Assembly: GCA_046344715.1 (NCBI GenBank)
Contig: JBKDKX010000016.1
Span: 74,202 to 138,201, forward strand
Source: Alphaproteobacteria bacterium
Lineage (GTDB): Bacteria > Pseudomonadota > Alphaproteobacteria > Rickettsiales > SXRF01
DNA length: 64,000 bases
Reading direction: 5' to 3'
Part shown: positions 9,488 through 39,662 of the stretch, piece by piece
Layout of the letters: every line of letters begins with the position of its first letter
How positions within the stretch are numbered: the stretch's first letter is position 1
Position numbers and translations under genes: made by a program
The notes under the pieces: model-generated
What the model saw: only the letters and a program-made list of their open reading frames with translations
Told to the model about the DNA's origin: nothing
Databases searched by the model: none

Positions 9488-9489
9488 AG

Positions 9490-14385: not shown

Positions 14386-14441
14386 AACTTTCCTTTACGT
14401 CATTATCTATGGTTTCGTTGTATCTCTGCGCGCCTGCTTTT

Positions 14442-15674: not shown

Positions 15675-16678
15675 TTAGTGTTCATCCACAATTTTGCTAC
15701 ATCCAGCATACGGCAGGAGAAAGCCCATTCATTATCATACCAGCTTGCGACACGGGCGATTTTACCGGTCACATACGTGCCAGTGATATCGACGATACTG
15801 CTATACGGGGTATGGGTATAATCAATCGACACCAGCGGGCGGCGAGAGATATGCAGAATATCTTTCAGGGATTCAGTTCCTGCGGCTTTATTCAGCGCAT
15901 CATTGATGGCGTCTTTGTTGGCTTCTTTTACGGTAGTGAAACTTAAATCCACCAGCGAAACATTAGGCACGGGCACGCGGATGGCAATGCCATCGAGCTT
16001 GCCTTTGAGTTCAGGTATAATCAGGCCAATAGTTTTTGCTGCACCCGTGCTGGTTGGAATCATCGACATGGCGGCGGAGCGGGCGCGTCGCAAATCTTTG
16101 TGGCTGTTATCTACTAAATTCTGATCACCCGTATAGGCGTGAATAGTGGTCATGAAGCCAGAATCAATGCCAAAGGCCTCATGTAATACTTTAGCAACGG
16201 GCGCCAACGCATTGGTGGTGCAGGAGCCAACGGAGACCACCTGATGGGTGTTTTTGAGCGCATCGTTATTCACGCCATACACAATGGTAGAATCTGCATT
16301 TTCGGCGGGTGCAGATACAAGCACACGTTTTGCACCGCCTGCTAAATGCTTCGCCCCTTCATCGCGCTTATTGAACTTGCCGGAACATTCCAGCACCACA
16401 TCCACACCCATATCTGCCCATTTGATTTGTGCTGGGTCTTTCTGGTGGGATAGCGCTACTTTCTTGCCAGCGATCATCAGCGCATCACCAGCTATCTCGG
16501 ATTTTGTGGCAAAGCGACCATGCACGGAATCATATTTCAGTAGATGCAAAATAGTATCGGCGGGGGCAGGGCTGTTGAGGGCTACCAGCTCGATTCCTTT
16601 ATCAGGATTCTCATAAATTGCGCGGGCGACGCAGCGGCCAATACGACCAAACCCATTTATACCAACTTTTATTGTCAT
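15671..16678 (-). CDS. gap: type I glyceraldehyde-3-phosphate dehydrogenase
   Basis: INGFGRIGR NAD-binding motif and active site SCTTNALAP. Confidence 0.95.
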   Translation of the reverse strand: MTIKVGINGFGRIGRCVARAIYENPDKGIELVALNSPAPADTILHLLKYDSVHGRFATKSEIAGDALMIAGKKVALSHQKDPAQIKWADMGVDVVLECSGKFNKRDEGAKHLAGGAKRVLVSAPAENADSTIVYGVNNDALKNTHQVVSVGSCTTNALAPVAKVLHEAFGIDSGFMTTIHAYTGDQNLVDNSHKDLRRARSAAMSMIPTSTGAAKTIGLIIPELKGKLDGIAIRVPVPNVSLVDLSFTTVKEANKDAINDALNKAAGTESLKDILHISRRPLVSIDYTHTPYSSIVDITGTYVTGKIARVASWYDNEWAFSCRMLDVAKLWMNTK

Positions 16679-19896: not shown

Positions 19897-19972
19897 TGGG
19901 GGTGTAGCTCAGTTGGTAGAGCACTTGATTTGCATTCAAGATGTCGCGGGTTCGATTCCTGTCGCCTCCACC
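19897..19972 (+). tRNA. tRNA-Ala (anticodon UGC)
   Basis: Hand-folded 76-nt cloverleaf. Acceptor GGGGGUG/CGCCUCC includes the G3:U70 Ala identity pair. D arm GCUC-AGUUGGUA-GAGC, anticodon loop UUUGCAU, T loop UUCGAUU, encoded CCA. Confidence 0.9.
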
Positions 19973-19973
19973 A
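19953..19973 (+). repeat. attL core (direct repeat copy 1, within the tRNA-Ala 3' end)
   Basis: Identical 21-mer to 27928-27948. Confidence 0.85.
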
Positions 19974-20012
19974 TTCTCTTATATAACAATCACCTATAGC
20001 CTGATTTCAGAG

Positions 20013-20034
20013 GTGTGACATACATGTGTGACAT
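20013..20034 (+). repeat. two GTGTGACAT motifs (putative integrase arm-type sites) at the attL side
   Basis: GTGTGACAT at 20013-20021 and 20026-20034, directly upstream of the integrase start codon at 20038. Confidence 0.6.
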
Positions 20035-20037
20035 TGT

Positions 20038-21612
20038 ATGCCATCTCCAAGCTATCTTGTGGCCTCACGCTTTGGCCATTTCTATTTCCGCTTCCCAATC
20101 CCTGCAAACCTCCACCCAGAGCGCAAACAAAGCTGTATCCGTCTATCGTTGGATACGCGCTGCCCTCGTGAAGCGTTGCAATTATCCCGCGCTCTCAGTT
20201 ATGTTGGTATTCAACTGCTTCAGAAACCTGAGATTTATAGCATGGACTATCAGGATATAAGGGAGGTGCTATTCGACCACTTCAAGGCCATGCGGGAACG
20301 CATGAAGCAGCGTATCAATACGCATGGTCGCCTGACTGAGCAAGATAAGAACGCATTGCTGAATAATAAGTCGTTATCTGAAGTTGCCTTACAGGATAAG
20401 GATTATAGCCTTGTGGGAACAGATGACCAGATGAATAGCCTGATTGATGATTACGCTTTGCCTATCACTCGCAACAGCCAACATTATAACACGCTTCAAA
20501 CTGAGTTCCTTAAAGCCTTCCGTGATTATTGCTCAAGCGTCATGGAATACGATTCACGGTTTGAGGGGTATAACTTCAAGACTGACCCTGCCTCGCTTGC
20601 CATGCAACAGGCTACCAAACGTACTTCTAAGAAGAAGCTGGTAGATGTCTTGGAAGGCTATATTGCTGAGAAGATACGCCTCAAGAAGTGGCGTATAAAC
20701 GTAGCGAATGACTATCGCACCCAGTTCAATCTGCTGCTGAAGTATCTGGGACAAGATGCCTCGCTGCATATCTCGGATGATTTAGCCAAAGACGTGAAGA
20801 ACATGCTGCTCAGGATGCCTATCAATGCCAACAAGAAGGCTGAACTCAAGGACAAGGCTATTCACGAGTTAATCACACTGGAAGGCCATAAGCGGATGAG
20901 TGCTCCTACCGTAAGCAAGCATATTGGCACATACAGCACCTTTTATGACTGGGCAGTAAAGCGCAAGGAAACAAGTGAGAATCCTTTTGCTGCTCTCGTT
21001 GATGATGTCAAACAGGTGTACGAAGAACGTGACCCTTTCTCACTGGCGCAATCTAAGGCTATTATCCAAGCGGCATTTGCAGCCAAGAAGCCGCACCAGA
21101 AATGTGGTGTGCTGATAGCTTTCTTTACAGGTGTAAGGCTGAATGAAGTAGCACAACTGGACATAACCGACATTAGGCAGGTGGAAGGTATCTGGTGCTT
21201 TGACATTAACGACAAAGGCGAATTCAAACGACTCAAGAACCCAGCTTCAAGACGTATAGTACCTGTTCACTCCAAGCTAATCGAATGGGGTTTACTAGAT
21301 TACGTTAAAGAAGCTGGCAAAGGTCGCTTGTTTCCTGATTTATCGTATCACCAGAAAGATGGATACGGACGCAATCTAGGTCGTTGGTTCAATGATTCTT
21401 TGCTTAAGAAATTAGAGATTAAATCGGATAAACTGGTGTTCCATTCTATCCGTCATACTGTTGCAGACCAGCTACGCAATAATGAGGTTGAACTCAGTAC
21501 CATCAAGGACATTCTTGGCCATACGCATGAGGATGTAACTATTGATGTGTATGCAAGTAATTTGCGTAAAGGGCTTATGCAGAAGGCAGTTGAAACAATT
21601 GCTTACAGTTAG
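20038..21612 (+). CDS. int: tyrosine-type site-specific integrase
   Basis: C-terminal catalytic pattern: GVRLNE (Arg), HSIRHT (HxxR), LGHTHEDVTIDVY (His/Tyr). The N-terminus YLVASRFGHFYFRFPIP resembles DUF6538-type integrase N-domains. Adjacent to the tRNA. Confidence 0.88.
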   Translation: MPSPSYLVASRFGHFYFRFPIPANLHPERKQSCIRLSLDTRCPREALQLSRALSYVGIQLLQKPEIYSMDYQDIREVLFDHFKAMRERMKQRINTHGRLTEQDKNALLNNKSLSEVALQDKDYSLVGTDDQMNSLIDDYALPITRNSQHYNTLQTEFLKAFRDYCSSVMEYDSRFEGYNFKTDPASLAMQQATKRTSKKKLVDVLEGYIAEKIRLKKWRINVANDYRTQFNLLLKYLGQDASLHISDDLAKDVKNMLLRMPINANKKAELKDKAIHELITLEGHKRMSAPTVSKHIGTYSTFYDWAVKRKETSENPFAALVDDVKQVYEERDPFSLAQSKAIIQAAFAAKKPHQKCGVLIAFFTGVRLNEVAQLDITDIRQVEGIWCFDINDKGEFKRLKNPASRRIVPVHSKLIEWGLLDYVKEAGKGRLFPDLSYHQKDGYGRNLGRWFNDSLLKKLEIKSDKLVFHSIRHTVADQLRNNEVELSTIKDILGHTHEDVTIDVYASNLRKGLMQKAVETIAYS

Positions 21613-21847
21613 AACTCAGTAATTCCTTTCTATATTTGAATTGACGCTAACCAGACGCTGCACTAGCGTTCTGGGTGGAAGTGCCTATGTAGGTGCTTCT
21701 GAGGCTAGTTACCTCTCACATGCGGCCTAATACAGCGTCAGGCCGTTACCAATGATGCTGCTTTCTCACCTTAGGGTCGAGGGGGCGGCTGAATACAATA
21801 GCGCAAGCGAATAAGCTGCGCCGTTCATGTGACGGTAACTATCCCTC

Positions 21848-21880
21848 GGCTGCCAGAGCAATCTGGTAGCCGTTTGTTTA
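21848..21880 (+). terminator. 10-bp stem with GCAA tetraloop followed by a T-rich tract
   Basis: ggctgccaga-GCAA-tctggtagcc (21848-21871), then gtttgttta. Ends 16 nt before the RBS/ATG of the next gene. Confidence 0.5.
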
Positions 21881-21895
21881 TGGCATGGAGGTAAT

Positions 21896-22720
21896 ATGCA
21901 CCAACCGATATTTACAAGGCGTGGAAAGATAGTTCTCGGCATCCTTACAATCCTTGTGGGAATGGGATGGATAATGGCTTCGCTGCCTGACATCGAAAGA
22001 TACTTGAAGGGTACGGGTGAGGATGAGCAACTACGCCAGAAGCATTATAGAGAATTGGTTTTGTACCAGTTGCAGTCGGAGTGGGAATGTTTGCCTGATT
22101 CACAGCAAGAGCGTGAAGCATTCGTGCTGAGAATAATGAAGCGGTTTCGCCCAGATGATTGGGCATTGATGGAATCTGGGCACAAATGGAAGCAAGAATA
22201 TGACAAGAAACAACATGCTAAAACATTAACCGTTAAAGAGCGCAAGCATGTCGCAGATAGCTATAAAGCTATCTCGATGGAGCCTCATGTTAAGGATGTA
22301 AGGCGGATACCATACACCTATTATTCTTTGCCTTGGACTAATACCTTGCCACGTTATTTAAGGCTTTCAGAATGTGTAATTAACGCGACAGAATCTTGTG
22401 AAAAGCCACGCTTTAGCTTCTCGGTAAACAAAGAGTCCGCAGCTATTTATGCAGAATATGAGAACGACTATGTGCGGTGGGAATTGCCCGCTGCTGCTTG
22501 GGAAGATGTATTAAAAGATGGTGAATTCCGCGAGTTAGGGAGGAGCAAGAAGATTAATGAGACTATTGCAGCAATCGAAGAACAGAAACAGCGTGATTAT
22601 GCGTTAGAGAAGCAAGCGCGGGATACCGTAATGAAGCTGAGTGCGTCAGCTATTCCCCCTCATCTTGAAGAATCTGCTATCGAGCAGGAATATCTGAGGC
22701 TCAAGTGCAAGGTGCAATAA
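21896..22720 (+). CDS. hypothetical membrane-anchored protein (274 aa)
   Basis: GGAGG RBS 7 nt upstream. N-terminal TM IVLGILTILVGMGWIMASL. The rest is charged and helical with no recognisable motif. Confidence 0.6.
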   Translation: MHQPIFTRRGKIVLGILTILVGMGWIMASLPDIERYLKGTGEDEQLRQKHYRELVLYQLQSEWECLPDSQQEREAFVLRIMKRFRPDDWALMESGHKWKQEYDKKQHAKTLTVKERKHVADSYKAISMEPHVKDVRRIPYTYYSLPWTNTLPRYLRLSECVINATESCEKPRFSFSVNKESAAIYAEYENDYVRWELPAAAWEDVLKDGEFRELGRSKKINETIAAIEEQKQRDYALEKQARDTVMKLSASAIPPHLEESAIEQEYLRLKCKVQ

Positions 22721-23214
22721 TACCAGTTATATGGATAGGGATATTAGCTATCTTACTGGTTGGTATTGTTCCAGCCGAGGCAAGAGATTACCGAGGTGAA
22801 GTGGTTGCTGTGACTGATGGTGATACACTCACCATGAGAGCGGGTAATAACCGTCGGATGATTATCCGGTTGGCCGATATTGACGCGCCAGAGAAACGCC
22901 AGCCATATGGTATGGAAGCAAAGCAGTCATTGGCTGGATTGGCACAAGGACAAGCGGTTATCGTGAACAAACAGACCAAGGATAAATATAGCCGTACAGT
23001 TGGTACGGTTTATCGTTCCAGTGATGCCTTAAACCTAAACCAAGAGATGACCAAGAGAGGTAATGCGTGGGCTTACCGCGCCTACCTACAGGACACCTCT
23101 ATAATCGCTTTAGAACAGGCCGCAGAAGCGCAGAAGATTGGGTTGTGGAGCTTGCCGCCAGAGGAGCGGATTCCTCCTTGGGAGTGGCGTAAAGAGCAAC
23201 GGGAATCGCATTAG
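22705..23214 (+). CDS. secreted thermonuclease (staphylococcal nuclease, SNase-like) family protein
   Basis: Signal/TM segment, then VTDGDTL...IRLADIDAPE...QPYG...KYSRTVG...WAYRAY, the SNase catalytic pattern. GTG start overlaps the upstream gene by 16 nt. Confidence 0.8.
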   Translation: MQGAIIPVIWIGILAILLVGIVPAEARDYRGEVVAVTDGDTLTMRAGNNRRMIIRLADIDAPEKRQPYGMEAKQSLAGLAQGQAVIVNKQTKDKYSRTVGTVYRSSDALNLNQEMTKRGNAWAYRAYLQDTSIIALEQAAEAQKIGLWSLPPEERIPPWEWRKEQRESH

Positions 23215-23279
23215 AAATGATAAGCTGCCATGTAAGGGTGAAATATCTATCTTTTTACTATAGTACAGTATGTTAAGTG

Positions 23280-23301
23280 CTAATATGCTTCGTACCTAGT
23301 A
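23280..23301 (+). repeat. 22-bp direct repeat copy 1 (CTAATATGCTTCGTACCTAGTA)
   Basis: Perfect match to 24158-24179. Lies 112 nt upstream of the ATG at 23413. Confidence 0.8.
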
Positions 23302-23412
23302 TAACAGGAGGTTATGGGTTTTGTACCAATATGCTAATTTACTAAAGTAAATATAGGTAAACATAGTACGGTTATATCCCTCCTTCCTGTTCTTTTAAAC
23401 TAGGAAGGTTAT

Positions 23413-24117
23413 ATGCAACAAACAATACCCCAAATAAAGCAAAGTCTAAAAGATGCTCAAACTGAAGTTCGTCTAGCAGGAGAAGCAAAATGGCAAGAAA
23501 TCAAAGCACATAATCCTCATCTGTCGGGCTTTGAAGTTAAGACTAAACCATATAGTTATAAAAAGCGTCCGGCAGGATTTAACAAGGTCATTGAACGTTT
23601 GATGAGTGAGATATCGTATCCATCTGGGATGAATTATGACTCAGGCGTATCATACACAGCAGGGGCAGACAGAACTCAAGCAGCGATTATAGAGAGAATC
23701 AGGCCATCATTCTCCAATCATAAGATACTACCGAATGTTTGGAATAGAAAGCTTACTAAGAAACAGTTTGAGAAAATGCAAGGGATGGCATGGCGCAATT
23801 TCCGTAAGCCAATTGACATTAAAGGTTGCAAAACGCTTGCTCAGGTCAAGAAACGTATCCAAGCAGCAATACATGCGAATGATGCCACATTTACCTTTAA
23901 AGGGACGATTGCTATTGACAATAAGGCCGTGATTGTTGGGAAAGATATTTACGCTATCGAAACGAGGAAATCGACTGGCCATGAATACCCTTCTATTCGG
24001 GTTAATATAGGCAATAAACGTGCATGGCTAAGGGTTGATTTGCTACGCTTAATACTGCCATGTAATATGATAATAGCTGAAAACAAGGCAAGTAAAACGG
24101 CTCTCAAAACATCATAG
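23413..24117 (+). CDS. hypothetical basic protein (234 aa)
   Basis: ORF with the RBS-like sequence aggaagg upstream. No recognisable motif. Confidence 0.55.
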   Translation: MQQTIPQIKQSLKDAQTEVRLAGEAKWQEIKAHNPHLSGFEVKTKPYSYKKRPAGFNKVIERLMSEISYPSGMNYDSGVSYTAGADRTQAAIIERIRPSFSNHKILPNVWNRKLTKKQFEKMQGMAWRNFRKPIDIKGCKTLAQVKKRIQAAIHANDATFTFKGTIAIDNKAVIVGKDIYAIETRKSTGHEYPSIRVNIGNKRAWLRVDLLRLILPCNMIIAENKASKTALKTS

Positions 24118-24157
24118 AATGTGTAAGAAGCTTGTTGGATAATTGTAAGCGGTATTC

Positions 24158-24179
24158 CTAATATGCTTCGTACCTAGTA
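24158..24179 (+). repeat. 22-bp direct repeat copy 2 (CTAATATGCTTCGTACCTAGTA)
   Basis: Perfect match to 23280-23301. Lies 232 nt upstream of the ATG at 24411. Similarity continues downstream (AACAGGAGGTTAT vs AACAGAAGGTGGTTTAT). Confidence 0.8.
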
Positions 24180-24410
24180 ACGATAGAACAGAAGGTGGTT
24201 TATAATAAATATGAAGATTATATCACTATGACTATCAGGTAATGGCCTTGGGGCTAATACACACTAGTTAATTGTTTGAGTAACTAGAAATAAGTAATTC
24301 CCATGCTGGGGGAGCTAATGCATGTCTAGCTTCAGGATTACAATAAGATTGTCTATAAAGTAAACTTATTCTACTAATACTGGAATAAATAGCCTGATTA
24401 GGAATTAATC

Positions 24411-25871
24411 ATGACGTTGTGGGATTGCATAATAGAGCAGATTGGAAACATCGAGAATCAATATAAAGATGTATTCAAGAAGATTGAAGCTGCTCAAGAT
24501 GGAAGTAAGCAGCGTTTAAATCTTACTGATGGTATTCCTAATTATCATGAATCTATAAATAGCATCCGAGCAAGGCTAACAACTGCACTTGGATTGTTTA
24601 AATCATTATTGGGTGTAGATACCAGCAGACTGCTTATTCCAATGCCCTATTTAAATAACTTGAATAGTGGCTTGAGGGGCATTCATGAATCCTTAAATGC
24701 TATTACTGGGTCATTTACAAATCTAGATGCGAATGGTGGAATTGCCAGCATCAATCCATCAAACTGGGATGTATTGAGTGTCAATCAGGCGTTTACGTTC
24801 AACATTGCAGCCCAATTGCAAGCGATAGACAGTCAGCTAGATAAAGCATTGGATGGATTTTATAGTATTCACGGCCTTGTACAAAGGCCAGACTACACAG
24901 GACTTTCAGACATTGGGGATACACTTACAGGAATTCTCGATGAATTCGCTGAAAGACGTAGCGAAGTCGTGGCGCTGGCAGATGAAGTTAAAAAGAGTAA
25001 GAAGCAAGTTGAGGGTGTAGTTGCCAACGTTAATACACAATTGCAGACTGCTACCGATATTAATAAGCAAATTGATGGAGCCAAGCAAAGTGCTGATAAC
25101 AAGCTAAAAGACATTACAACTGCCGAAGCTTCTGTAGTTCTAAAGATGCCTACAATCGAAGATGTGCACACTAAAGTCACTGCACTCAAGAAAGATGTAG
25201 AGGATTACAAACCTCAATTTGAAAAGTTCAAAGAGCAACTTGAGCAGCGGGTGAAGAAGTATACTGAAGGCAATATCGAGCTTGAGAAGTTGTTAAAATC
25301 ATTGATAGACCAAGAAATAGAAATCAAACGTATTAATGGCGAAGCTTCAGCAGCATTAAACTTTGCTACTGTAGCGGGTATTGCGAAGGGTTTTGAAGAT
25401 AGAAGGGCAGCTCTCGATATAGAATTGAAGAATGCGTATCGCTGGTATGTAGGTGCGGTTGTTAGTTTGTTCGTAACAACAATGGTTCCAGCATCCTATG
25501 TGGTGGCGATTATATTTAAGTTGGAGTATGTGAAAGACACAACTGAGATAGACTATCATGCACTGGTAACACTCTTGCTGTTGGTTGTGCCATCTGCAAT
25601 TATGACCCGCTTTACTTCGAGTCGCTATAACAGCCTCTTCAGGCTAAGAGAACAGTACGCACATAAATTCTCGATTGCATTCAGTATGGAAGGGTTCAAG
25701 AAGGCACTCAAGGAAGATGAACAAAACAAACTTGTTGCCACTACATTTGCACAGCTTTCAAGCAATAATCCGGCTGACTCAATAGATAATAAATCAAGTT
25801 CAAGTTCAGAAGAACATCCTTTGCCTATTTGGGAGAAATGCCTTGATTTCATTTGTCCCAGCAAGAAATAG
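24411..25871 (+). CDS. hypothetical coiled-coil protein with C-terminal 2-TM module (486 aa)
   Basis: About 340 aa of helical K/E/Q/D-rich sequence. Hydrophobic helices at about aa 345-369 and 383-399 (nt 25443-25607), then a charged Ser-rich tail. No enzymatic motif seen. Confidence 0.65.
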   Translation: MTLWDCIIEQIGNIENQYKDVFKKIEAAQDGSKQRLNLTDGIPNYHESINSIRARLTTALGLFKSLLGVDTSRLLIPMPYLNNLNSGLRGIHESLNAITGSFTNLDANGGIASINPSNWDVLSVNQAFTFNIAAQLQAIDSQLDKALDGFYSIHGLVQRPDYTGLSDIGDTLTGILDEFAERRSEVVALADEVKKSKKQVEGVVANVNTQLQTATDINKQIDGAKQSADNKLKDITTAEASVVLKMPTIEDVHTKVTALKKDVEDYKPQFEKFKEQLEQRVKKYTEGNIELEKLLKSLIDQEIEIKRINGEASAALNFATVAGIAKGFEDRRAALDIELKNAYRWYVGAVVSLFVTTMVPASYVVAIIFKLEYVKDTTEIDYHALVTLLLLVVPSAIMTRFTSSRYNSLFRLREQYAHKFSIAFSMEGFKKALKEDEQNKLVATTFAQLSSNNPADSIDNKSSSSSEEHPLPIWEKCLDFICPSKK

Positions 25872-25908
25872 CCCCCATTTCGTATGGGTGGTGAGATAAG
25901 GTAATGCG

Positions 25909-27648
25909 ATGTCATTAGAGAATATCAAGAAATCCATTTGTAATTTCCTGCGTTCAGACGACACGGGAATTCTACTTATTCGTGGCAAATGGGGGGTAGG
26001 AAAAACACATCTTTGGAATGAAGCTCTCAAGGAGTGCGGGGCGGATATAAAAATACCAATATGCTACCAATCACTGTTTGGTATTACCTCGCTGCATGAG
26101 GTTAAGTTTGGGCTGGCAACTCAACTGCTATTGGCTGAAGAAAGATGGGAACCCAAGACTTCCAAACTGGGCAAATATAGCGACACTGCAAAGAGTGCCC
26201 TCAGGTGGACGCGAAAAGGAACCGGAAAGTTTGGTGGTGCAGTTGAGGCACTAATGCCTGCTATGCAGAAAGCCCTCGCTCTTTCCGCGTTTAATGCACT
26301 CGATTCTGCTGTTATTTGCTTCGACGATTTGGAAAGAAAGAATCCATCTCTAACGATGAATGAATTACTAGGATTAGCAACGCTTCTACGGGATGAGAAG
26401 CAATGCAAAGTGGTATTCATCTTGAATACGGATATGCTTGATGAAAAAGATAGGGACGATTTGCAACGCTATAAAGAAAAGATTGTAGATATTGACTTGC
26501 TCTTAGAACCCAGTCCTGAAGAATGTATCCATATCGCCGCGCCTGAACTTCAGGAGGAAGAGAATGCAGTAATTCGAGCGTCTATACAGAAGCTGAATAT
26601 TAGCAATATCCGAATAATCAGGCGCATACTCAGGCAGTGGCGGGAGCTGAAAGCTCACCTACCATCATCCCATTTTCATCAAACCACAATTAACTCTGCT
26701 GCTTCTAGCTTATGCCTTTTCTCATGGGCTTATTATGGCACTGCTGAAAATAAGCCAGATGTAGAGTTTCTTAAGAAATATCAGGTGTGGAATGATAAAG
26801 AGAATGCCGATGCACAAGTGCAGATATGGCGCAAACTATTAGAAGATTACGGATACCAGTCTACTGATGAACTTGACCTTGAGATTGAGTCATTTGTTCG
26901 TACTGGCTTTATAAATGATAATCTATTTACTAAAGCTGATGCCCTGAATCAGGGAGTTGCAAGGTCTGCACTGGAATCCGAATTCTCAAAAGCCTGGGAC
27001 ATCTATCACGATTCCTTCCAAGATGACGTTCAATTAGTATTGGATACGTTATTTGAGGCATTTAAAAGATGTGTCATAGGGATAAGCCCCGGCAATCTTA
27101 ATGGAGTGGTGCGGTTATTTAAAGAACTTAGTGACCCTCAACGTGCTCAGCAAATGATTGACTACTACATGGAACAGCGGGGGGATGAGCTTGAGCTATT
27201 TGATATGAACGAGCGTTCTATTTCCTTCTTTGAGGAACCACAGCCTGAGGTTCTAGCGGCCTTTGAAAACCATAGGCTACGATTAGAGCAATCGGATACT
27301 AGTACCCTTGAGTCTTTAATTGATGAGTTAGTAAAAGAGCGTTCATTACGTTCATTTAAGGAACGGCGTTTGATAAGTGCAACTGTGGATGAATATTATG
27401 CTTACTTTAAATCCCTATCTATGGGGGCATACAAGGCTGTCCGTGCCTGTCTACAGTATGCACCGTATAACGATGATAAGAAGATAATCGCCGTGAATGC
27501 AGCTAAAGCTCTTGAAAGAATATCGGCAGAAAGTGCATTGCAAGCAAGGCGTGTGGCTCAGAAATTAGGAAGAAATCATTCGCTTCTGCAAAATACGGAA
27601 ACGCAAGATGGTGATGAAGAATCATTGGAAGCCGAAGTAGAGGTCTAA
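25909..27648 (+). CDS. KAP-like P-loop NTPase (579 aa)
   Basis: Walker A GKWGVGKT (aa 26-33), Walker B VICFDDLER (aa 135-143), then VVFILNTD and NIRIIRRI segments as in KAP-family NTPases. The helical C-terminal half of about 350 aa is unassigned. Confidence 0.65.
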   Translation: MSLENIKKSICNFLRSDDTGILLIRGKWGVGKTHLWNEALKECGADIKIPICYQSLFGITSLHEVKFGLATQLLLAEERWEPKTSKLGKYSDTAKSALRWTRKGTGKFGGAVEALMPAMQKALALSAFNALDSAVICFDDLERKNPSLTMNELLGLATLLRDEKQCKVVFILNTDMLDEKDRDDLQRYKEKIVDIDLLLEPSPEECIHIAAPELQEEENAVIRASIQKLNISNIRIIRRILRQWRELKAHLPSSHFHQTTINSAASSLCLFSWAYYGTAENKPDVEFLKKYQVWNDKENADAQVQIWRKLLEDYGYQSTDELDLEIESFVRTGFINDNLFTKADALNQGVARSALESEFSKAWDIYHDSFQDDVQLVLDTLFEAFKRCVIGISPGNLNGVVRLFKELSDPQRAQQMIDYYMEQRGDELELFDMNERSISFFEEPQPEVLAAFENHRLRLEQSDTSTLESLIDELVKERSLRSFKERRLISATVDEYYAYFKSLSMGAYKAVRACLQYAPYNDDKKIIAVNAAKALERISAESALQARRVAQKLGRNHSLLQNTETQDGDEESLEAEVEV

Positions 27649-27836
27649 CCAGAAATTCGACATAGTTTTCCGTGAGGGCATATACATATAAGATGGCACG
27701 GAATGTCCCCCGTAGGGCAGGTCTCCTAGAAATGGCCGTAGAAGGGGTATAATCCATTTGCATGAGCTTGGGTTATATCTAGTAGCAATCGCTGTTGTAC
27801 GGGCTTCTTATTGCGTCACAAGGTTATTGACTTTAG

Positions 27837-27868
27837 GTGTGACATAGTGTGACATAAAGGTGCGACAT
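27837..27868 (+). repeat. three GTG(T/C)GACAT motifs (putative arm-type sites) at the attR side
   Basis: GTGTGACAT at 27837-27845 and 27847-27855, GTGCGACAT at 27860-27868. Same orientation as the attL-side copies. Confidence 0.6.
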
Positions 27869-27927
27869 AGAACTAGTCACGTCTTCTGAAAGCCTCAGGT
27901 TTTCTGGTGATTATGATGATTGGTGGA

Positions 27928-27948
27928 GATTCCTGTCGCCTCCACCAT
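27928..27948 (+). repeat. attR core (direct repeat copy 2, displaced tRNA-Ala 3' end fragment)
   Basis: Identical 21-mer to 19953-19973. Confidence 0.85.
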
Positions 27949-27955: not shown

Positions 27956-27980
27956 AAGCCGCTCTTAGCGGCTTTTTTGT
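27956..27980 (+). terminator. Rho-independent terminator (probably the native tRNA-Ala terminator displaced by the island)
   Basis: aagccgc-tctta-gcggctt followed by tttttgtt, starting 8 nt after the attR copy. Confidence 0.75.
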
Positions 27981-28114: not shown

Positions 28115-28996
28115 TCATTGACTGTTAACGTGATTGTTTAAAATGGTAGCAGAAGTTTGCTCTGAGGATTTAGCCGCATAGTAAGCCTGAACAATAGCCG
28201 CAAAAGCGATGATAAAGGTAAGAATACCTATGAGCCATTGAGTTCTTATGGCATCTGTATGACGACGCTTGCTTTCATGGAAATCTCCAAGTGTTTGGAT
28301 TGCGCGAGGATCGAGCGTGTAGCCAATGCCATCCCTCACAAGATCACCAGAAGCCACGAATGCATCCAAAAACAAATCCAGCCTTCGCTTTGCTTTTTGC
28401 GAATGTGGGTGATAAATCCATTTCGATGATCGAAGTTCTGTCATAAGTTGGAATGCGCTGAAGGTTGGCTTCGTATTATTTGAAGTGGGGGATGTTATGG
28501 AGCCTTCAGAGCCTAAGTGTCTTTCGATGATAAATTCAAGCAAGCCCATCCGGTCGCGGATTACCCATAGCGGTTTTTGGTTGAAAAACCATTGCGAGAG
28601 ATTCTTCCAAAAAATCCTACAGTATACTTCAATCTGTACCCAACGCATCTTATAGTCTCGGACTAGGCGGTGGACGTCCGTGTAGTCTTCCCAATATGTC
28701 TTGTAGAAATATTTTACATGGAGGGGGTATTGGAGGGCATCGGATAATGCGACTGTCGTGCTTATTGTAAAAGCACTGTTTCCATCAGGAGTATAAACAT
28801 CAAGCATGCGTGTGTTTGGATTATAGTCCTCTACCAAATATTGATTACCAAAATGGATGCTATAGTAATCATTCAATTGTGCTGTTTCTCCCGTTAAAGA
28901 AATGCGGGAGGGAGCCTTCTTGATGAGTAACTTGGGGAGTAACTCGTGCAGAACGTGTTCCGGAGATGATTTTCTAAATAGATTCATGCTCAACAT
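28115..28996 (-). CDS. hypothetical protein with C-terminal TM anchor (293 aa)
   Basis: ORF with the single hydrophobic helix WLIGILTFIIAFAAIVQAYYAA near the C-terminus. No recognisable motif. AT-richer than the neighbouring tpm. Confidence 0.55.
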   Translation of the reverse strand: MLSMNLFRKSSPEHVLHELLPKLLIKKAPSRISLTGETAQLNDYYSIHFGNQYLVEDYNPNTRMLDVYTPDGNSAFTISTTVALSDALQYPLHVKYFYKTYWEDYTDVHRLVRDYKMRWVQIEVYCRIFWKNLSQWFFNQKPLWVIRDRMGLLEFIIERHLGSEGSITSPTSNNTKPTFSAFQLMTELRSSKWIYHPHSQKAKRRLDLFLDAFVASGDLVRDGIGYTLDPRAIQTLGDFHESKRRHTDAIRTQWLIGILTFIIAFAAIVQAYYAAKSSEQTSATILNNHVNSQ

Positions 28997-30582: not shown

Positions 30583-33500
30583 TTGAAATTATACGCCACA
30601 ACACAAAAACAATGCCTGAATTTAGCGCGTAGGCTAATAGCCTGGCTCGTGTGCTGCGCATTGGTTGTGCAGCCGACGCTGGTATACGCGCTGCCTACGG
30701 GTGGCACTGTGGTTGGTGGTGATGCGAGTATTGTCGCCGGTGATTCATCCCTGACTGTAAACCAAACAACGCAGCGCGCACTCATCAACTGGACGGGTTT
30801 TGACATTGGTGGCGCGGAATCGGTGCAATTTAACCAGCCTGGTGCGTCATCGATCACGCTTAACCGTGTAAATAGTGCCAGTGCATCGCAAATTAATGGC
30901 TCGCTTTCTTCAAATGGTCAGGTGTGGATTGTAAACCAGAATGGCGTGATGTTCGGGCAGGGCGCGCAGGTGAATGTGGGCGGCTTGCTGGCTACCACCG
31001 CAAATATTTCCGACAGTAATTTCATGAACGGCAACTATGTTTTTGATGTTGCTGGTAATCATGCCGCATCTATCGTGAATGATGGCAGTATCACGGTGGC
31101 AGATGCCGGGTTTGCAGCATTGGTTGCTCCGGTGGTGCGCAATAATGGCGTGATTCAGGCGAAGCTCGGCACGGTGAATTTATCATCAGGCGATACGTTC
31201 GCGGTGGATTTGTATGGTGATGGTTTGATAAACCTCGAAGCAAGCGCGGCACTGCAACAGCAGCTGATTTCAAACAGTGGGCTTATTGAAGCTAATGGCG
31301 GATCTGTATTCCTTACAGCAGCTGCAGCTGGTGACATGGTGGATAGCCTCATCAATATGGATGGTATTATTCGCGCAAATAGTATCGGCGAGAAAAATGG
31401 CTCAATTGTTTTATATGCGGAAGGTAGCAATGCCGTTGCTGGGAATGTTGCAGCGGATAAAGGCCAGAAACAAGGCATAAGCACCGTGCTGGTAAGCGGT
31501 ACAATCGAAGCAAAAGGCAATGCAGCTGGTGAGCATGGCGGTAATGTAGATGTACTTGGCGATCATGTTGGGTTAATGAGCGGCGCATCACTTGATGCAA
31601 GCGGAATGAATGGCGGTGGTAAAATTCGCATTGGTGGTGATTATTTCGGGGGTGGCGACACACCGACCGCACTTAAAACCTTAGTGCAGCGCAATACAAC
31701 CATCAAAGCCAACGCGATCGAATCCGGCGATGGCGGGCGCATTACCCTATGGTCAGATGATACCACATGGTTTGGCGGCGCAATTGAAGCCAAAGGCGGT
31801 GCATTTTCCGGCAATGGTGGTTTTGTTGAAGTATCCGGCAAAGAATATCTTACATTCCGCGGCACAGTAGATACACGCGCGGAAAATGGTGCAACGGGTT
31901 TGTTGCTGCTTGATCCAGCAGACATCGTGATTGCTGATGGTACGGCGGATAGCGCAGCGGATGGCAGCAATACGTTTTCAGGCGATCCATCTGGCACAGT
32001 AGGCACAATACTAAGTGGCGATACAGGACCCGCTACCATTTATGAATCTGAGTTGGAAGGCATTGCTGCAAGCACCAATATTTCTCTGGCTTCCACCAAC
32101 AGCATCACCATCAATAATCTCACCGATAACAATCTGAATCTCGCGCAGACGGGCGGCAACTCCGTTACCTTCACCACGGGCGCAGGTGGCTTCAATATGA
32201 ATTCCGGTGATGCCATCACTACCGCCGGTGGTGCAATCAACATCGTCACCACCGGTGGCACCAGCACGATTGGTAGTCTTGCAGCTGGTGGTGGCCTTAT
32301 CACACTTAATATGGGCGGCACAATAACCGTTTCCGGTGTAATCAGCGGTACAGGCACAGGACTTACCAAAACCGGTTCAGGGACACTCGCTCTTAATAAT
32401 GCAAATACCTATGATGGCACCACCACACTCACGGCTGGTACAATTGCAGTGGGTAATAACTCTGCACTCGGTACAGGTACGCTTTCACTCAATGGCGGTA
32501 CGCTGCAGGGTGATGGCACAGCGCGTACATTGGCGAATAACATAACACTGTCAGCAAACAGCACCATCGGTGGTAGTTCTGCGCTACAATTTGATGGTAC
32601 GTTTGGGAATCTATCAGGTAACCGTACGCTCACCGTGAGCAACTCTGCCAATACCACCTTTGATGACATTAATATTTCCAGCAGTGCGACAGACCGTGAA
32701 TTGTTTATTGATGGTGCAGGTAATATGATTGTGAATGGCGTGATTGCCAATGGTGGTGGTTCCAGCGGAAGTGTTTTGACACACTTAGGTTCTGGGATGC
32801 TTGCGCTTAATGGTGCGAACACTTTTGGTCGTTATTCGCAGTTTAATAATGGTATCACGCAGATAGGTAATGACAGTGCGCTTGGCAGCGGCAGCGTATG
32901 GCTGGCAGGTGGCACGTGGCGTGGTGATGGCACAACACGCACAATTTCCAATAATTTATCATTATTTGATAGTATAACGATTGCTGGCAGCTCAGACCTT
33001 GTTTTTAATGGCAATCTTAACAGCGGTGACCTTTCGATTACTAATAACAATAGCGGTCTCACTACATTTGCTAACATCAACCTTTCTGATGGCGCGACTG
33101 ACCGTACACTGACAATTACCGGTACAGGTAATACAGTAATAAGCGGTGTAATCGCCAACGGTAGCACATCAACTGCCAGCGGTATAACTAAGGCTGGTTC
33201 AGGTACTCTTACGCTGGATGGCAGTAATACTTATGGCGGTATTACGACGCTTACTGCCGGTACAATCGAAGTTGGTCACAATAACGCACTCGGCACCGGC
33301 GCACTTTCACTCAATGGTGGCACACTGCGCGGTGATGGCACAGCGCGTACATTGACGAATAACGTAACGCTTGCTGCAGACAGCACCATCGGTGGATCAT
33401 CAGCACTTCAGTTCGATGGTACGCTTGGGAATATCACCGGTACACGGTATTTGGATGTAAGCAACAGTGCGACCACGACATTCGGTAACATAAACGTATC

Positions 33501-36024
33501 AAGTGATGCGACTGACCGCTTTATGTTTTTTACCGGTACGGGTAATACGGTGGTGAATGGTGTTGTTGCTAACGGTGGAGGTTCAGCAAGTAGTGGCATT
33601 GGCTTGGTAAGTTCCGGCTCCCTGACCCTGAATGGAAATAATACCTATGGTGGCAATTTCTATCACGATGGTGGCACACTCATATTAGGCCATGACAACG
33701 CGCTGGGTACGGCCAATTTCCTGGCCTATGGCGGTACTATTCAGGGTACGGGTGGTACGCGCACCATAGCCAATAACATATCTTACTGGGATGATACAAC
33801 GTTTGCCGGTAGCGTAGCACTGGTATTCAACGGTGATTTTTATAATACAAACAACCTGAGTGTTACGAATAACAACACAGCTACCACGACATTCTCCAAT
33901 ATCGATCTTGCATATGACGCCACTAACTTTACGCTGACCTTCGGTGGTACGGGTAACACGGTAGTAGGCGGTGTAATTAGCAATGGTGGTGGTGGTTCAA
34001 CAACCAGTGCCATAACCAAAACTGGTTCTGGTACATTAACACTAGATGGTAACAACACTTATGGCGGCACCACAACACTGACCGCAGGTACGATTGAAGT
34101 AGGTCATAATAATGCACTGGGTACGGGCACGCTTTCGCTGAACGGAGGCACGTTACGTGGTGACGGTACGGCACGCACATTGGCGAATAATATTACATTA
34201 GATGAAAACAGCACCATCGCTGGCAGTTCTGCGCTCCAATTTGACGGTACGTTTGGGAATTTATCCGCTGATAGAACCATTACGGTTAACAACAGTGCCA
34301 CCACAACATTTGATGATATTAATATATCCAGCAGCGCAACTAATCGCACACTTACAATCGCTGGTACGGGTAACACCGTAATAAGCGGCGTGATCGCTAA
34401 CGGCAGTACATCAACAGCCAGCGGCATTACAAAATCTGGTGCGGGTATCCTGACGCTTTCCGGCAATAATACCTATGCGGGCGATACAAACATCAACGGC
34501 GGCACGCTGCGTCTTGGTGCAGCAAACCGTCTGGCCAACACTACCGATGTGGTAATTGGTGCATCTGGTACGTTTGATTTGAATGGTTATAGCGAAACCG
34601 TGGCGAGCATCACCAACGGTGGCGCAATCACCATGGGTACAGGCAACACACTCACCACCACCGGCGCACAGACGCACACTGGCAGCATCAGCGGCACGGA
34701 TATCTCCATCATTGCCAATACCGGCAACCTGACTTTTGATACGGTTTCTACTAATACACTCTTTGCACAGGCTGTTGCCGGTGACATTATCCTGAATGAC
34801 CAGATAACGGCTGCTGCCAATGCTGGCACATCCATCACGCTGGTGGCTGACGACCAGTTTATCAATAACCATGGCGCAACGGCTCTGCAAACTGCAGGCA
34901 CAGCACGTTGGTTAGTATATTCTGATGATTCTGCGAACAATACGCGCGGCAGCCTGACAGGTTTCAACCGTTATGGCTGTACTTACAATGCTGGTTCACC
35001 GGATTGTGCGGTGGGTACGTCTACGCCTGCCACGGGCAATGGGTTTTATTTCAACTTCGCACCAACCTTGACTATTTCAGGACTCAGCGCAGCCAACAAA
35101 GTATATGATGGTAATACGACTGCCACCATCACCGGCACGGCAACACTCAATGGCATAATTAATAGTGATACGGTAACGCTGGATGCCAGCGGAGCCACTG
35201 CAACGTTTGATAACCGCAACGTAGGCAACGGAAAAACCGTGACATTCTCTGGTTATGGTTTTGCAACTAATCTGGGTTATTTGCTGACACAGCCTTCAAC
35301 CGTGGTGGCAAATATCATGGCCAAGGCGCTGACCATCGCTGGACTTGCTGCCGCTAACAAAGTGTATGATGGCACAACGGCGGCGGCACTTTCCGGCACG
35401 GGATCGCTCGTTGGCGTCGTCGGTGGTGATACGGTAGGTTTCACTATGGGTACGGCAACCTTTGATACGCCAAATGTCGGCACTAACAAAACAGTTACCG
35501 GTTCTGGTTTTGGCCTGAGTGGTGCGGATTTAGGCAATTACTTGCTGACTCAGCCAAGCTGGTTTGCAGATATTACTTCTGGATCAGTGGTTGCAAATTC
35601 TAACCAGAACACTATCAATGCCATTGTATCACAGCTTGGATTACTCATTGAAATTGCCAGCGCAGTAACTAGTGTAAGTAGTACGGCTAACATCTTTGAG
35701 TATGCGCCAGGCATTCCAGAGCCTTCACGTATGGATATTTCTGCTGTGGAAGAGGCACCGCAGCAAAAAACATCACAAGATAAGCCAGTGGCAGCCAAAA
35801 AGAAGGATGAAGCATGGATTGAAATCAATGCCTTGATCGATTTTGGTGGTTTGTTGAAAGGTGCTGCCACAGAAATGCAGGCAGCCCCGCCTTCCGATGA
35901 GGCTGTTGCACCAACAAAACCTGCTGTAAAACATTCCGATGAACGCAATCAATGCGGCGGACTAATGGGCAGCGCCGTCTGCGCCTCTAAAATTTTCTCA
36001 ACCATCGGTGTGCCGAATATTTAA
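30583..36024 (+). CDS. two-partner-secretion exoprotein (TpsA): filamentous-haemagglutinin N-terminal TPS domain, autotransporter-associated beta-strand (PATR) repeats and two YDG domains
   Basis: TTG start and signal peptide. TPS domain LPTGGTVVGGDASI...NQTTQRALINW..F.IG...V.F.QP...SITLNRV......ING.L.SNGQVWIVNQNGVMFG. Repeated GSGTLTLDGNNTYGGTTTLTAGT modules at 32365-34560. ANKVYDG(N/T)T YDG domains at about 35066-35580. Confidence 0.85.
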   Translation: MKLYATTQKQCLNLARRLIAWLVCCALVVQPTLVYALPTGGTVVGGDASIVAGDSSLTVNQTTQRALINWTGFDIGGAESVQFNQPGASSITLNRVNSASASQINGSLSSNGQVWIVNQNGVMFGQGAQVNVGGLLATTANISDSNFMNGNYVFDVAGNHAASIVNDGSITVADAGFAALVAPVVRNNGVIQAKLGTVNLSSGDTFAVDLYGDGLINLEASAALQQQLISNSGLIEANGGSVFLTAAAAGDMVDSLINMDGIIRANSIGEKNGSIVLYAEGSNAVAGNVAADKGQKQGISTVLVSGTIEAKGNAAGEHGGNVDVLGDHVGLMSGASLDASGMNGGGKIRIGGDYFGGGDTPTALKTLVQRNTTIKANAIESGDGGRITLWSDDTTWFGGAIEAKGGAFSGNGGFVEVSGKEYLTFRGTVDTRAENGATGLLLLDPADIVIADGTADSAADGSNTFSGDPSGTVGTILSGDTGPATIYESELEGIAASTNISLASTNSITINNLTDNNLNLAQTGGNSVTFTTGAGGFNMNSGDAITTAGGAINIVTTGGTSTIGSLAAGGGLITLNMGGTITVSGVISGTGTGLTKTGSGTLALNNANTYDGTTTLTAGTIAVGNNSALGTGTLSLNGGTLQGDGTARTLANNITLSANSTIGGSSALQFDGTFGNLSGNRTLTVSNSANTTFDDINISSSATDRELFIDGAGNMIVNGVIANGGGSSGSVLTHLGSGMLALNGANTFGRYSQFNNGITQIGNDSALGSGSVWLAGGTWRGDGTTRTISNNLSLFDSITIAGSSDLVFNGNLNSGDLSITNNNSGLTTFANINLSDGATDRTLTITGTGNTVISGVIANGSTSTASGITKAGSGTLTLDGSNTYGGITTLTAGTIEVGHNNALGTGALSLNGGTLRGDGTARTLTNNVTLAADSTIGGSSALQFDGTLGNITGTRYLDVSNSATTTFGNINVSSDATDRFMFFTGTGNTVVNGVVANGGGSASSGIGLVSSGSLTLNGNNTYGGNFYHDGGTLILGHDNALGTANFLAYGGTIQGTGGTRTIANNISYWDDTTFAGSVALVFNGDFYNTNNLSVTNNNTATTTFSNIDLAYDATNFTLTFGGTGNTVVGGVISNGGGGSTTSAITKTGSGTLTLDGNNTYGGTTTLTAGTIEVGHNNALGTGTLSLNGGTLRGDGTARTLANNITLDENSTIAGSSALQFDGTFGNLSADRTITVNNSATTTFDDINISSSATNRTLTIAGTGNTVISGVIANGSTSTASGITKSGAGILTLSGNNTYAGDTNINGGTLRLGAANRLANTTDVVIGASGTFDLNGYSETVASITNGGAITMGTGNTLTTTGAQTHTGSISGTDISIIANTGNLTFDTVSTNTLFAQAVAGDIILNDQITAAANAGTSITLVADDQFINNHGATALQTAGTARWLVYSDDSANNTRGSLTGFNRYGCTYNAGSPDCAVGTSTPATGNGFYFNFAPTLTISGLSAANKVYDGNTTATITGTATLNGIINSDTVTLDASGATATFDNRNVGNGKTVTFSGYGFATNLGYLLTQPSTVVANIMAKALTIAGLAAANKVYDGTTAAALSGTGSLVGVVGGDTVGFTMGTATFDTPNVGTNKTVTGSGFGLSGADLGNYLLTQPSWFADITSGSVVANSNQNTINAIVSQLGLLIEIASAVTSVSSTANIFEYAPGIPEPSRMDISAVEEAPQQKTSQDKPVAAKKKDEAWIEINALIDFGGLLKGAATEMQAAPPSDEAVAPTKPAVKHSDERNQCGGLMGSAVCASKIFSTIGVPNI

Positions 36025-36279
36025 GTTCAGCATACAGTGGTTATATTTTACATAAAAAATTAAAATAGCGAATCCGAGGTTTCACGCAAATCTGCGATAT
36101 CCAGTGTGGTAAACTGATTATCGAGTAAATTTCTATACAGCTTATCAAGCCTGACAGGCGTGTCTATAACCCTGCCTTCCATACCAGGAATTTTAATGGC
36201 TATAAAAATTGCCCGCCAATCCTGATTATAGTTAGTGGTGGTGTAGTCTTTAGAAAAACTGTAATTGTGAAGGCCAACC

Positions 36280-37944
36280 TCATTTGGTTTTTAGAATGTA
36301 TTTTGTTGTTTTACGTTTGCGGAGACGTTCTTCATACGCTTTGCGCTTGGTTGCTGCGCTATGAAGTATAGCGGAAGCATCCGCCAGTAAGTAGTCATAT
36401 GCATTTGTTTGGAAACCAAATATTGCTTTTATGCGCCTGAAGCTCCATATATCTCCCGCTGTCACTTCACGTAATAGGCGATAATACTCAGCCAGTTCGG
36501 GGTTCATATGCCTGGTATCTCCGGTAGCGCGTGCTTTGACGTATCCAGCAGGGACTTCACGCCGGTAGTGTCCCGCGCGCCAGTATTTTTCTGATTTTAT
36601 GATAGGCAAGCGTGCAAGGAAAGGGTCGGCCAGTGCAAACGTGTCAATGATAATCCTTTGTCTCCTAGAATAAAAGCCATACATGCCAATATTGCGCTGT
36701 ACAATAACACCACGCTTCTTTTTATGTTTCTCTACCTTGTCTATCCATGTGTGAACTGGAGTGGTTGTAAAGTTTGGAAGAAAATGATGCTGCACTGTGG
36801 TTTCATGTTTGTAATAATCACGCTCTCTGAATACCACGTTTCGATAGTCAGTAATGTCTGAATTTCTATAAGGTACGATGTTTGAAAGGAATACTGTCTG
36901 GACAAAGGTTATACTGAGCAGAGCAACCAGAAATATTGTATGACAATGTTTATCAAATTTAGCAAACAGATGAAATAGAACGATTATACAGATCAATATG
37001 ATATTCATCATGAAGCGGCCAGACATCATGTCTCCGCCTATCCATATTACATAAGCAATATGGATCACACATCCTGTTAACAACAAGGCTATAGCCGTTT
37101 CCTCAGCATTACGTATTATGCGCAGTCGCTTTTTATAAAAAAAATAAATTGATAAAGAAAATGCCAAGAGAATTATTAATGCTGCTGCCGTGTCATAATA
37201 CAGGAAATTTTCCATATACCTGATTCCCTGAGGCAATAAATCCTGAGGGGTAAGGCCGGTGTTCAGCTTGGCATATTTTGTATTAGGGAACAAAAACCCG
37301 TAATATATCAGGCTGAATACATACCACAAAATAACTGGAATTTGTGTGATGATAAGAAATAATAAACTTAACTGCTTTTTGTATGTAAAGACTAGCCACA
37401 TTAAAACAGGAGCAATCACAAAAATATTATCAAGGCGCGTAAGAAGCAGTAGCCCTGCAATAACGCACAGAAGATAAATTTTCTTCTGATCAATTTTAGA
37501 GAATAAAATATATAAAAATCCGCTGAGGAGTAGAAAATTAAGGCAATTTTCCATACCACTGATCATAAAATCACGTATTGTTACGCTGCATATTAAGGGC
37601 AGCATAATTAGCAATAAAATGGATAATTTATCAGTGCTGAATCTCCATAATATAACCAAGCTAGCTGCAGAGCATATTGTACAGGCTATAAGAGCGGTTA
37701 GTACGGCATCTTTGGTAACCGCATAAATAGGCGTTAGCAGTATCATCCAAAGTGGATGGGTATAAACTTGGACTCTTTCATCAATATTCCATCGCAGACC
37801 GTATCCATTGATAAAATTATCAATAACCCTGAAGGTAATAAACGCATCTTCAGCCATCCAACCGTTTAGAAAGAAAAACGTTATCATAAGGAATGATGCG
37901 ATGAAGGCGTCGGTAGTGGAAATAGGTATGGTTTGTTTTGTCAT
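36280..37944 (-). CDS. polytopic membrane protein, possibly a GT-C-type glycosyltransferase (554 aa)
   Basis: At least 10 predicted TM helices. The N-terminal loop motif AEDAFITFRVIDN resembles the DDAxISFRY motif of GT-C arabinosyl/mannosyl-transferase-like proteins. Markedly AT-rich. Family call is tentative. Confidence 0.5.
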   Translation of the reverse strand: MTKQTIPISTTDAFIASFLMITFFFLNGWMAEDAFITFRVIDNFINGYGLRWNIDERVQVYTHPLWMILLTPIYAVTKDAVLTALIACTICSAASLVILWRFSTDKLSILLLIMLPLICSVTIRDFMISGMENCLNFLLLSGFLYILFSKIDQKKIYLLCVIAGLLLLTRLDNIFVIAPVLMWLVFTYKKQLSLLFLIITQIPVILWYVFSLIYYGFLFPNTKYAKLNTGLTPQDLLPQGIRYMENFLYYDTAAALIILLAFSLSIYFFYKKRLRIIRNAEETAIALLLTGCVIHIAYVIWIGGDMMSGRFMMNIILICIIVLFHLFAKFDKHCHTIFLVALLSITFVQTVFLSNIVPYRNSDITDYRNVVFRERDYYKHETTVQHHFLPNFTTTPVHTWIDKVEKHKKKRGVIVQRNIGMYGFYSRRQRIIIDTFALADPFLARLPIIKSEKYWRAGHYRREVPAGYVKARATGDTRHMNPELAEYYRLLREVTAGDIWSFRRIKAIFGFQTNAYDYLLADASAILHSAATKRKAYEERLRKRKTTKYILKTK

Positions 37945-37998
37945 AGCCTAATATTATTTGCTCATCACTACCATTAACATATACAGAGAGTCATAATC

Positions 37999-39585: not shown

Positions 39586-39662
<77 letters not shown>

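Follow-up and report, generated by a model that had tools for sequence, protein, structure and literature searches.

Do two genes that lie side by side at the end of an integrative island form one anti-phage system, or are they separate pieces of cargo that became neighbours? The question is raised by a stretch of 64,000 nucleotides (the window) from an Alphaproteobacteria bacterium (contig JBKDKX010000016.1, positions 74,202 to 138,201), in which an 8 kb integrative island at a tRNA-Ala gene (19954-27948) carries two co-oriented genes, here called A and then B, as its final two genes ahead of the attachment repeat attR. A first-pass annotation made from the letters alone had proposed the pair as a single undescribed defence or abortive-infection (Abi) system. 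The open reading frames (ORFs) have exactly the coordinates, the lengths in amino acids (aa) and the 37-nucleotide (nt) gap given there:

24411..25871, + strand: ORF A, 486 aa; N-terminal helical domain (aa 1-160), heptad coiled coil (aa 160-340), hairpin of two transmembrane (TM) helices, conserved tail
25872..25908, + strand: A-B spacer, 37 nt; weak hairpin without a T-run (z -1.6), purine-rich stretch ahead of the ATG
25909..27648, + strand: ORF B, 579 aa; soluble KAP-type P-loop NTPase (aa 1-250) and all-helical C-terminal domain (aa 251-555)

Our analysis favours the second answer. A and B are probably two standalone candidate anti-phage genes placed together on one island, with no obligate two-gene system, and we read them as independent cargo because they were found nowhere else side by side. 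They would be individually mobile accessory genes, independent of each other, that became neighbours as island cargo. A role in defence or abortive infection, as first proposed, is plausible for each gene from homology and genomic position; it was not supported for the two genes as one system. The structures of the genes, the families to which they belong, the borders of the island and the missing co-conservation are shown by the analysis, and defence function, topology and mechanism are inferences.

A and B relatives are not neighbours elsewhere

At least 568 relatives of B were confirmed among 600 matched stretches from GTDB species genomes; others occur at 120 loci in IMG/VR, in 143 plasmid records and in a few isolated temperate phages. 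The best 79 of the genome loci and 80 of the 120 IMG/VR loci were surveyed for genes resembling A. No such ORF was present near the B relatives in the best 79 genome loci, and the A-family profile gave a single real match over the 80 viral loci, located 4.6 kb off and on the opposite strand. This locus (L228), with a B-family gene at 8001-9680 (+) and an A-family-like gene at 14333-15769 (-; E 1.8e-26), is the only one among the surveyed loci that has both families on one contig. The first-pass annotation had staked its two-gene reading on conservation of the two genes together elsewhere. This neighbour co-conservation across genomes, expected of an obligate two-gene system, was not found: an A relative adjoined a B relative in 0 of 159 loci (79 genome and 80 viral).

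The reciprocal survey gave the same picture. No B-family protein was detected near A relatives in 32 viral and 48 metagenomic loci, nor in individual look-ups; 38 loci with full-length and about 45 with shorter A relatives showed neither a B-family protein nor a recurrent partner of any other kind. The two closest homologues of A have different genes behind them. The homologue with 48% identity is followed, after a spacing of 36 nt that is similar to the A-B gap, by unrelated proteins of 117 and 209 aa, and no gene was called within 400 nt downstream of the homologue with 57% identity.

On the side of B, the immediate neighbours of the genomic relatives differ in size, strand and family, and recurring neighbours are confined to one group, the Desulfuromonas-type loci, where they reflect clade synteny. 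TM proteins of about 210 aa upstream of some B homologues appear from a Pfam census to be LysE-type translocators, and a 223-aa neighbour looks, from its sequence, like a uracil-DNA-glycosylase-type protein. The 209-aa TM protein behind the 48% A homologue was compared with the TM proteins of about 210 aa that precede B homologues, and the two are unrelated. Four public contigs carry B, all bearing the same island, and the only copies of the pair come from the same organism.

Gene B belongs to a family of candidate single-gene defence NTPases

The catalytic motifs of B are listed below.

25984..26007, + strand: Walker A GKWGVGKT, aa 26-33 (K32); motif and alignment
26311..26337, + strand: Walker B VICFDDLER, aa 135-143 (D139, D140, E142 and R143 invariant); motif and alignment
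26605..26628, + strand: NIRIIRRI, aa 233-240 (N233 and R235 invariant), a putative sensor or arginine motif; motif and alignment

The assignment of B to the KAP-type P-loop NTPases, made in the first-pass annotation from four motifs, was borne out. All four, including VVFILNTD at aa 168-175, lie where they had been placed, and the Walker region passes the gathering score of the Pfam model, the check suggested at the time: KAP_NTPase (PF07693) matches aa 8-208 with 44.7 bits (gathering score 20, E 1.4e-11), over positions 6-234 of the 293 in the profile. Residues G31, K32, T33, D139, D140, E142, R143, N233 and R235 are invariant among 30 homologues. Many B homologues bear a precomputed PF07693 match, and plasmid homologues are annotated 'KAP family NTPase'.

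TM helices are typical of many KAP members, and B has none: its highest Kyte-Doolittle 19-residue window reaches 1.24, below the threshold of 1.4. Yet PifA lacks them too, and TM helices are therefore not obligatory for KAP NTPases (PMC13001434).

The AlphaFold2 (AF2) model of B is confident, with a predicted local distance difference test score (pLDDT) of 84 and a predicted template modelling score (pTM) of 0.72. In it, an alpha/beta NTPase core precedes a C-terminal domain made up of helices only, and a poorly ordered, low-confidence helical insert (aa 81-130) separates Walker A from Walker B. The top Foldseek matches were ORC4, Cdc6, SAMD9, RdrA and Apaf-1, each with a probability of 1.0 and with TM-scores of only 0.2-0.3, and the likeness therefore covers the NTPase core alone. 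As modelled, this core is of an AAA+/STAND-like fold. A search of PDB sequences returned no solved relative of B, and a search of NCBIfam no match.

Three PADLOC models of PDC-S49 match B: PDLC05031 (E 7.7e-26), PDLC05029 (7.1e-19) and PDLC05030 (2.1e-13). B also matches phrog_4740, which is unannotated, over its full length (E 2.4e-61). Its homologues fall into 121 clusters of the protein index, the nearest being just 35% identical. Judged by these matches, B belongs, as a divergent member, to a family of KAP NTPases that the catalogues already list as a single-gene defence candidate. The word 'undescribed' in the first-pass annotation is thus no more than half right: PADLOC has the family of B as a candidate, and other single-gene KAP NTPases have been validated as antiphage proteins.

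From homology and position, the most likely role of B would be that of a single-gene anti-phage protein. Recognition of a phage-derived cue may fall to its helical C-terminal domain; a switch in oligomeric state or conformation, driven by the Walker A/B NTPase, would then block infection.

The position of B relatives in prophages fits such a role. Of the 80 viral loci, 36 have the B relative as the final gene in the interval from the P2 replication gene gpA to the portal gene gpQ, which has been described as a hotspot for defence systems (PMC13586616). Within it, B relatives have only short ORFs beside them, or other cargo that varies; the family is often the one sizeable gene of cargo there and would, on that ground, work without A. 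This position holds for B relatives and not for the copy of B in the window. One example is the P2-like prophage hotspot of E. coli AF5 (NZ_OZ547033.1, L253 6989-10665), where the B homologue WP_001518830.1 stands beside an LA2681-family HEPN protein. Co-cargo at the P2 hotspot differs widely among otherwise similar prophages.

Gene A belongs to a large family of membrane proteins without annotation

The C-terminal part of A contains the following features.

25446..25526, + strand: hydrophobic helix 1, aa 346-372; hydropathy
25545..25622, + strand: hydrophobic helix 2, aa 379-404; hydropathy
25623..25868, + strand: tail after the TM helices, RFTSSRYNSLFRLREQYAHKFSIAFSMEGFK ... NNPAD ... HPLP, the best-conserved part of the family; family alignment

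The coiled coil, two hydrophobic helices and Ser-rich tail seen in the first pass are all present. Kyte-Doolittle windows of 19 residues reach 1.4 or more solely at starts aa 346-354 and 379-386. Between aa 160 and 340 the heptad periodicity is strong, two phases being 63-71% hydrophobic against 37% overall, and serine makes up 16% of the tail. The comparison with small 2-TM modules failed: A is 486 aa long, and no SLATT model matched it in Pfam at E<=0.1. A set of 60 A-family members matched 95 Pfam families, and SLATT was not among the 25 commonest of these. A would be an inner-membrane protein anchored by its 2-TM hairpin. The N-terminal domain and tail, with the coiled coil, are predicted to be cytoplasmic, because A lacks a signal peptide and its N-terminal domain is large.

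A word-indexed homologue search gave only two to three relatives of A, even with a profile, the two closest being 57% and 48% identical, and an exhaustive HMMER search was needed to reveal the family. With an alignment of A and two relatives as query, this search recovered 160 cluster representatives at E<=1e-30, a number that rose to 385 at E<=1e-10; nearly all are 470-520 aa long, with matches that run from end to end. The members have in common a GATxAGLAxxF motif ahead of the first TM helix, a variable loop between the TM helices, and a strongly conserved tail after them (F.A.RH..LFRLREHYAYKYS.A.SVEGFKKQ ... FNPAD ... HPNP).

Searches of Pfam, NCBIfam, PADLOC and PDB sequences, made with A alone and with profiles of 3 and 60 sequences, gave coiled-coil matches only. 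SMC, Rad50, JetC, LmuB, MCP and Taxilin were rejected as relatives, their matches reflecting coiled-coil composition; the PADLOC matches, such as LmuB and JetC, are noise of this kind. Among phage protein families, aa 185-438 match phrog_30912 (E 6.4e-11) and the C-terminal half also matches phrog_34659. Both are unannotated, and phrog_30912 proteins, at about 423 aa, differ from A in having no counterpart of its N-terminal domain. The AF2 model of A, built from 3 sequences, was poor (pLDDT 50, below 40 in the TM region) and unsuited to a structure search. On the homology searches, A is a member of a large, uncharacterised membrane-protein family without annotation in Pfam, NCBIfam, PADLOC or PDB.

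Relatives of A occur in varied settings. Those in prophages are shorter, and their neighbours are mostly anti-repressors, repressors and integrases. The repressor, anti-repressor and integrase region of prophages is a common seat of temperate-phage exclusion and Abi genes. One relative lies on an island with an integrase and an Mrr-like protein, much like the island of the window; another lies close to DarT, where a filamentous prophage ends, and a third is solitary, beside DUF488 and caspase-like genes. In a sample of loci, the neighbours include integrases, ArdC, GmrSD, type IIG restriction-modification (R-M), PycC, PDC-S05 and HEC-06, mixed with housekeeping genes, and sampled neighbours of genomic B relatives form a similar mixture. 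Many A relatives stand as single-gene units with divergent or convergent genes on either side, and at three loci they adjoin ArdC/MPTase genes of conjugative elements. From position, the most likely role of A would be that of a standalone membrane-acting protein of superinfection exclusion or abortive infection.

At four loci (L138, L139, L145 and L149) the A-family gene directly adjoins a Walker-A protein of 900-1000 aa. The Pfam census of neighbours indicates that these proteins are most likely UvrA, and the position beside uvrA may be a recurrent insertion site and not a partnership.

Could A and B nevertheless act together?

Several observations weigh against reading A and B as independent cargo. 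The two genes are co-oriented, 37 nt apart, and no terminator-like site was found between them on the + strand. Co-transcription is likely because the spacer holds no terminator; this probable co-transcription is the sole link between A and B. Their compositions are alike (GC content 0.400 and 0.426, codon usage r 0.75), and GC and codon usage are therefore uninformative about an independent origin. Taken together, the shared orientation, short spacer and similar composition make a locally evolved coupling possible. B has no recognisable effector domain or TM helix, and a membrane partner supplied in trans would be mechanistically sensible by analogy with PifA, a TM-less KAP protein that acts at the membrane. 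The nearest homologues, at 35% for B and at 57% and 48% for A, leave the pair itself without a close relative. Finally, genes in the fetched loci were called crudely, by taking the longest ORFs, and the defence genes around A and B relatives come from samples with no background model.

These points bear on a reading close to the original one, a lineage-specific two-component abortive-infection system in which B would sense infection and its nucleotide switch would activate or assemble A, whose hairpin would perturb the inner membrane. The likely single transcript (same strand, 37-nt spacer, no intrinsic terminator), the similar composition of the genes, the lack in B of TM helices and of an identifiable effector, and the one viral contig with A-like and B-like genes 4.6 kb apart are consistent with it, as is PifA, which is TM-less and yet causes membrane lesions (PMC13001434). 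We consider such a system unlikely, since no adjacency was seen in the 159 B-relative loci or in about 70 A-relative loci, and the closest A homologues bear different downstream genes. B relatives, moreover, are frequently the sole sizeable cargo gene at the P2 hotspot, and A relatives often stand as monocistronic genes between divergent or convergent neighbours.

A newly formed chimera, in which a TM-less KAP NTPase was captured behind an A-family gene and both now work as a single sensor-effector operon of abortive infection, is somewhat less likely again. If this were true, the operon would resemble systems reported to arise at defence hotspots, and it would give the A family, with its hundreds of cluster representatives, a first function as a new class of membrane effector.

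Less probable still is that B is a standalone defence gene and A a mobile-element membrane protein of another kind, serving conjugative or filamentous elements in entry or surface exclusion, acting as a membrane scaffold, or being an accessory of lysis or secretion. The three loci beside ArdC/MPTase genes of conjugative elements, the relative at the end of a filamentous prophage, the prophage relatives within regulatory modules, the members flanked by housekeeping genes such as uvrA, and the PADLOC matches to coiled coils only would all suit such a role. On the other side, A relatives lie where exclusion and Abi genes typically do, in the immunity regions of prophages and next to nucleases on small integrase islands, the neighbours of A relatives include GmrSD, type IIG R-M, PycC, PDC-S05 and HEC-06, and excluding incoming elements is in itself a conflict function.

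That both genes are decaying or neutral passengers of the island with no conflict function is highly improbable: both families are without experimental evidence and PDC-S49 is a prediction only, but the two ORFs are intact and have the full length seen in their families, the catalytic residues of B are invariant, the conserved tail of A is intact, the att repeats are perfect, and both families are patchy yet widespread over phages, plasmids and islands. We thus retain the reading of A and B as two standalone genes.

The island and its borders

The placement of A and B at the distal end of a tRNA-Ala island, taken from the first pass, agrees with the following features.

19898..19973, + strand: tRNA-Ala(TGC), integration target of the island; ARAGORN, Rfam tRNA 69 bits
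19954..19974, + strand: attL core, perfect 21-nt direct repeat corresponding to the tRNA-Ala 3' end; 2 matches within the window, 0 expected by chance
20013..20035, + strand: two GTGTGACAT(A/T) repeats adjoining attL, putative arm-type integrase binding sites; repeat search
20038..21612, + strand: tyrosine integrase, 524 aa; Pfam Phage_integrase 6.2e-16
23280-23301 and 24158-24179, + strand: perfect 22-nt direct repeat CTAATATGCTTCGTACCTAGTA; 0 expected by chance
27837..27869, + strand: three GTG(T/C)GACATA repeats adjoining attR, putative arm-type sites; repeat search
27928..27948, + strand: attR core, second copy of the 21-nt repeat and terminus of the island; repeat search

An integrase beside the tRNA gene, the tRNA 3' end directly repeated at the opposite border, and a deviant composition, the three marks of a tRNA-targeting integrative island, were all found; the GC content of the island is 0.40-0.45, against about 0.50 for core genes on the flanks. 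The motif GTGTGACATA is repeated just inside both ends. A scan with Rfam returned nothing beyond two tRNAs.

The copies of the 22-nt repeat CTAATATGCTTCGTACCTAGTA lie 112 nt 5' of an ORF of 234 aa and 232 nt 5' of A, each embedded in a similar element of roughly 60 nt. This element may be a shared operator or promoter, that is a regulatory site, or a cassette junction. The 234-aa ORF (23413-24117) encodes a basic protein that forms a singleton cluster, has a GC content of 0.40, low like that of A and B, and gave no match in Pfam, PADLOC, NCBIfam or PHROGs. The same island also carries an overlapping gene pair at 21896-23214. Its 274-aa protein has an N-terminal hydrophobic anchor and no family match, and its 169-aa protein, whose N-terminus is signal-like, is a nuclease of the SNase family (Pfam SNase 9.5e-22; weak match to PADLOC 'SNc+LTD').

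Right behind attR, a strong terminator-like hairpin at 27956-27974 is probably the original terminator of tRNA-Ala, pushed 8 kb away by the island. The 293-aa ORF directly beyond attR (28115-28996, - strand; GC 0.43) has a C-terminal hydrophobic helix and matches phrog_7611 (2.9e-17); it may be a leftover of an earlier insertion at the same tRNA, and no further att copy was found. Farther on, an ORF of 1813 aa (30583-36024) has precomputed Pfam matches to TPS, PATR and YDG, of the kind found in large exoproteins of two-partner-secretion or autotransporter type. A second GC trough (0.36-0.41) at 36000-38000, near tRNA-Pro (39586-39662), may be another island.

Implications for annotation

The A+B pair should not enter annotation as a new two-gene system. 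A, the more useful lead, represents a widespread family of proteins of about 490 aa, conserved over their full length and without annotation. Were either gene to protect against phage, the island would make a compact natural vehicle for two defence genes, and the nuclease gene pair would share this element with them. In that case the A family would be a new family of membrane-acting exclusion or Abi proteins that merits mechanistic study.

Comparison with known systems

RexA and RexB of phage lambda combine a sensor and a membrane protein, and the Rex genes are strictly co-inherited. Their logic, in which a mobile element encodes a cytoplasmic sensor and, next to it, a membrane effector, is the same as that envisaged for the pair, a likeness of logic only, whereas A and B are not co-inherited in this way. 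Tmn is a membrane-associated NTPase defence protein that couples NTP turnover to an effect on the membrane; there, two TM helices lie inside the P-loop domain of one polypeptide of another family, whereas the hairpin of the window is on a separate, unlinked protein.

PifA, the T7-exclusion protein of the F plasmid and founding KAP member, has a KAP fold without TM helices, like B, when compared by description. This TM-less protein acts by abortive infection, with membrane depolarisation and nucleotide leakage (PMC13001434). Neither its T7 triggers, gp1.2 and gp10, nor the context of its operon bears any relation to this island.

A catalogued counterpart of B is PDC-S49, a single gene; the family of B likewise behaves as a single gene, with variable neighbours. 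B matches all three of its models, best over aa 23-476; the match is distant, with 89 bits over profile positions 28-483 of 624. PDC-S49 is a single-gene entry, whereas B in the window has a co-oriented membrane-protein gene upstream. PDC systems are 'guilt-by-embedding' candidates and as such predictions only (Payne et al. 2024 preprint, 10.1101/2024.01.29.577857).

Protection by single KAP genes has been reported in two settings. EF_KAP and three other single-gene KAP NTPases protect Enterococcus faecalis against phage, and EF_KAP depends for its defence on both its Walker B motif and its C-terminal region (PMC13552941). Reve, a single-gene KAP P-loop system of P4 hotspots, gives strong phage protection (PMC13586616). 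EF_KAP differs from B in being modelled with two TM helices, which B does not have. By description, both EF_KAP and Reve resemble B in having a KAP NTPase domain followed by a C-terminal region of about 300 aa without a known domain, and both are single-gene systems carried on mobile elements.

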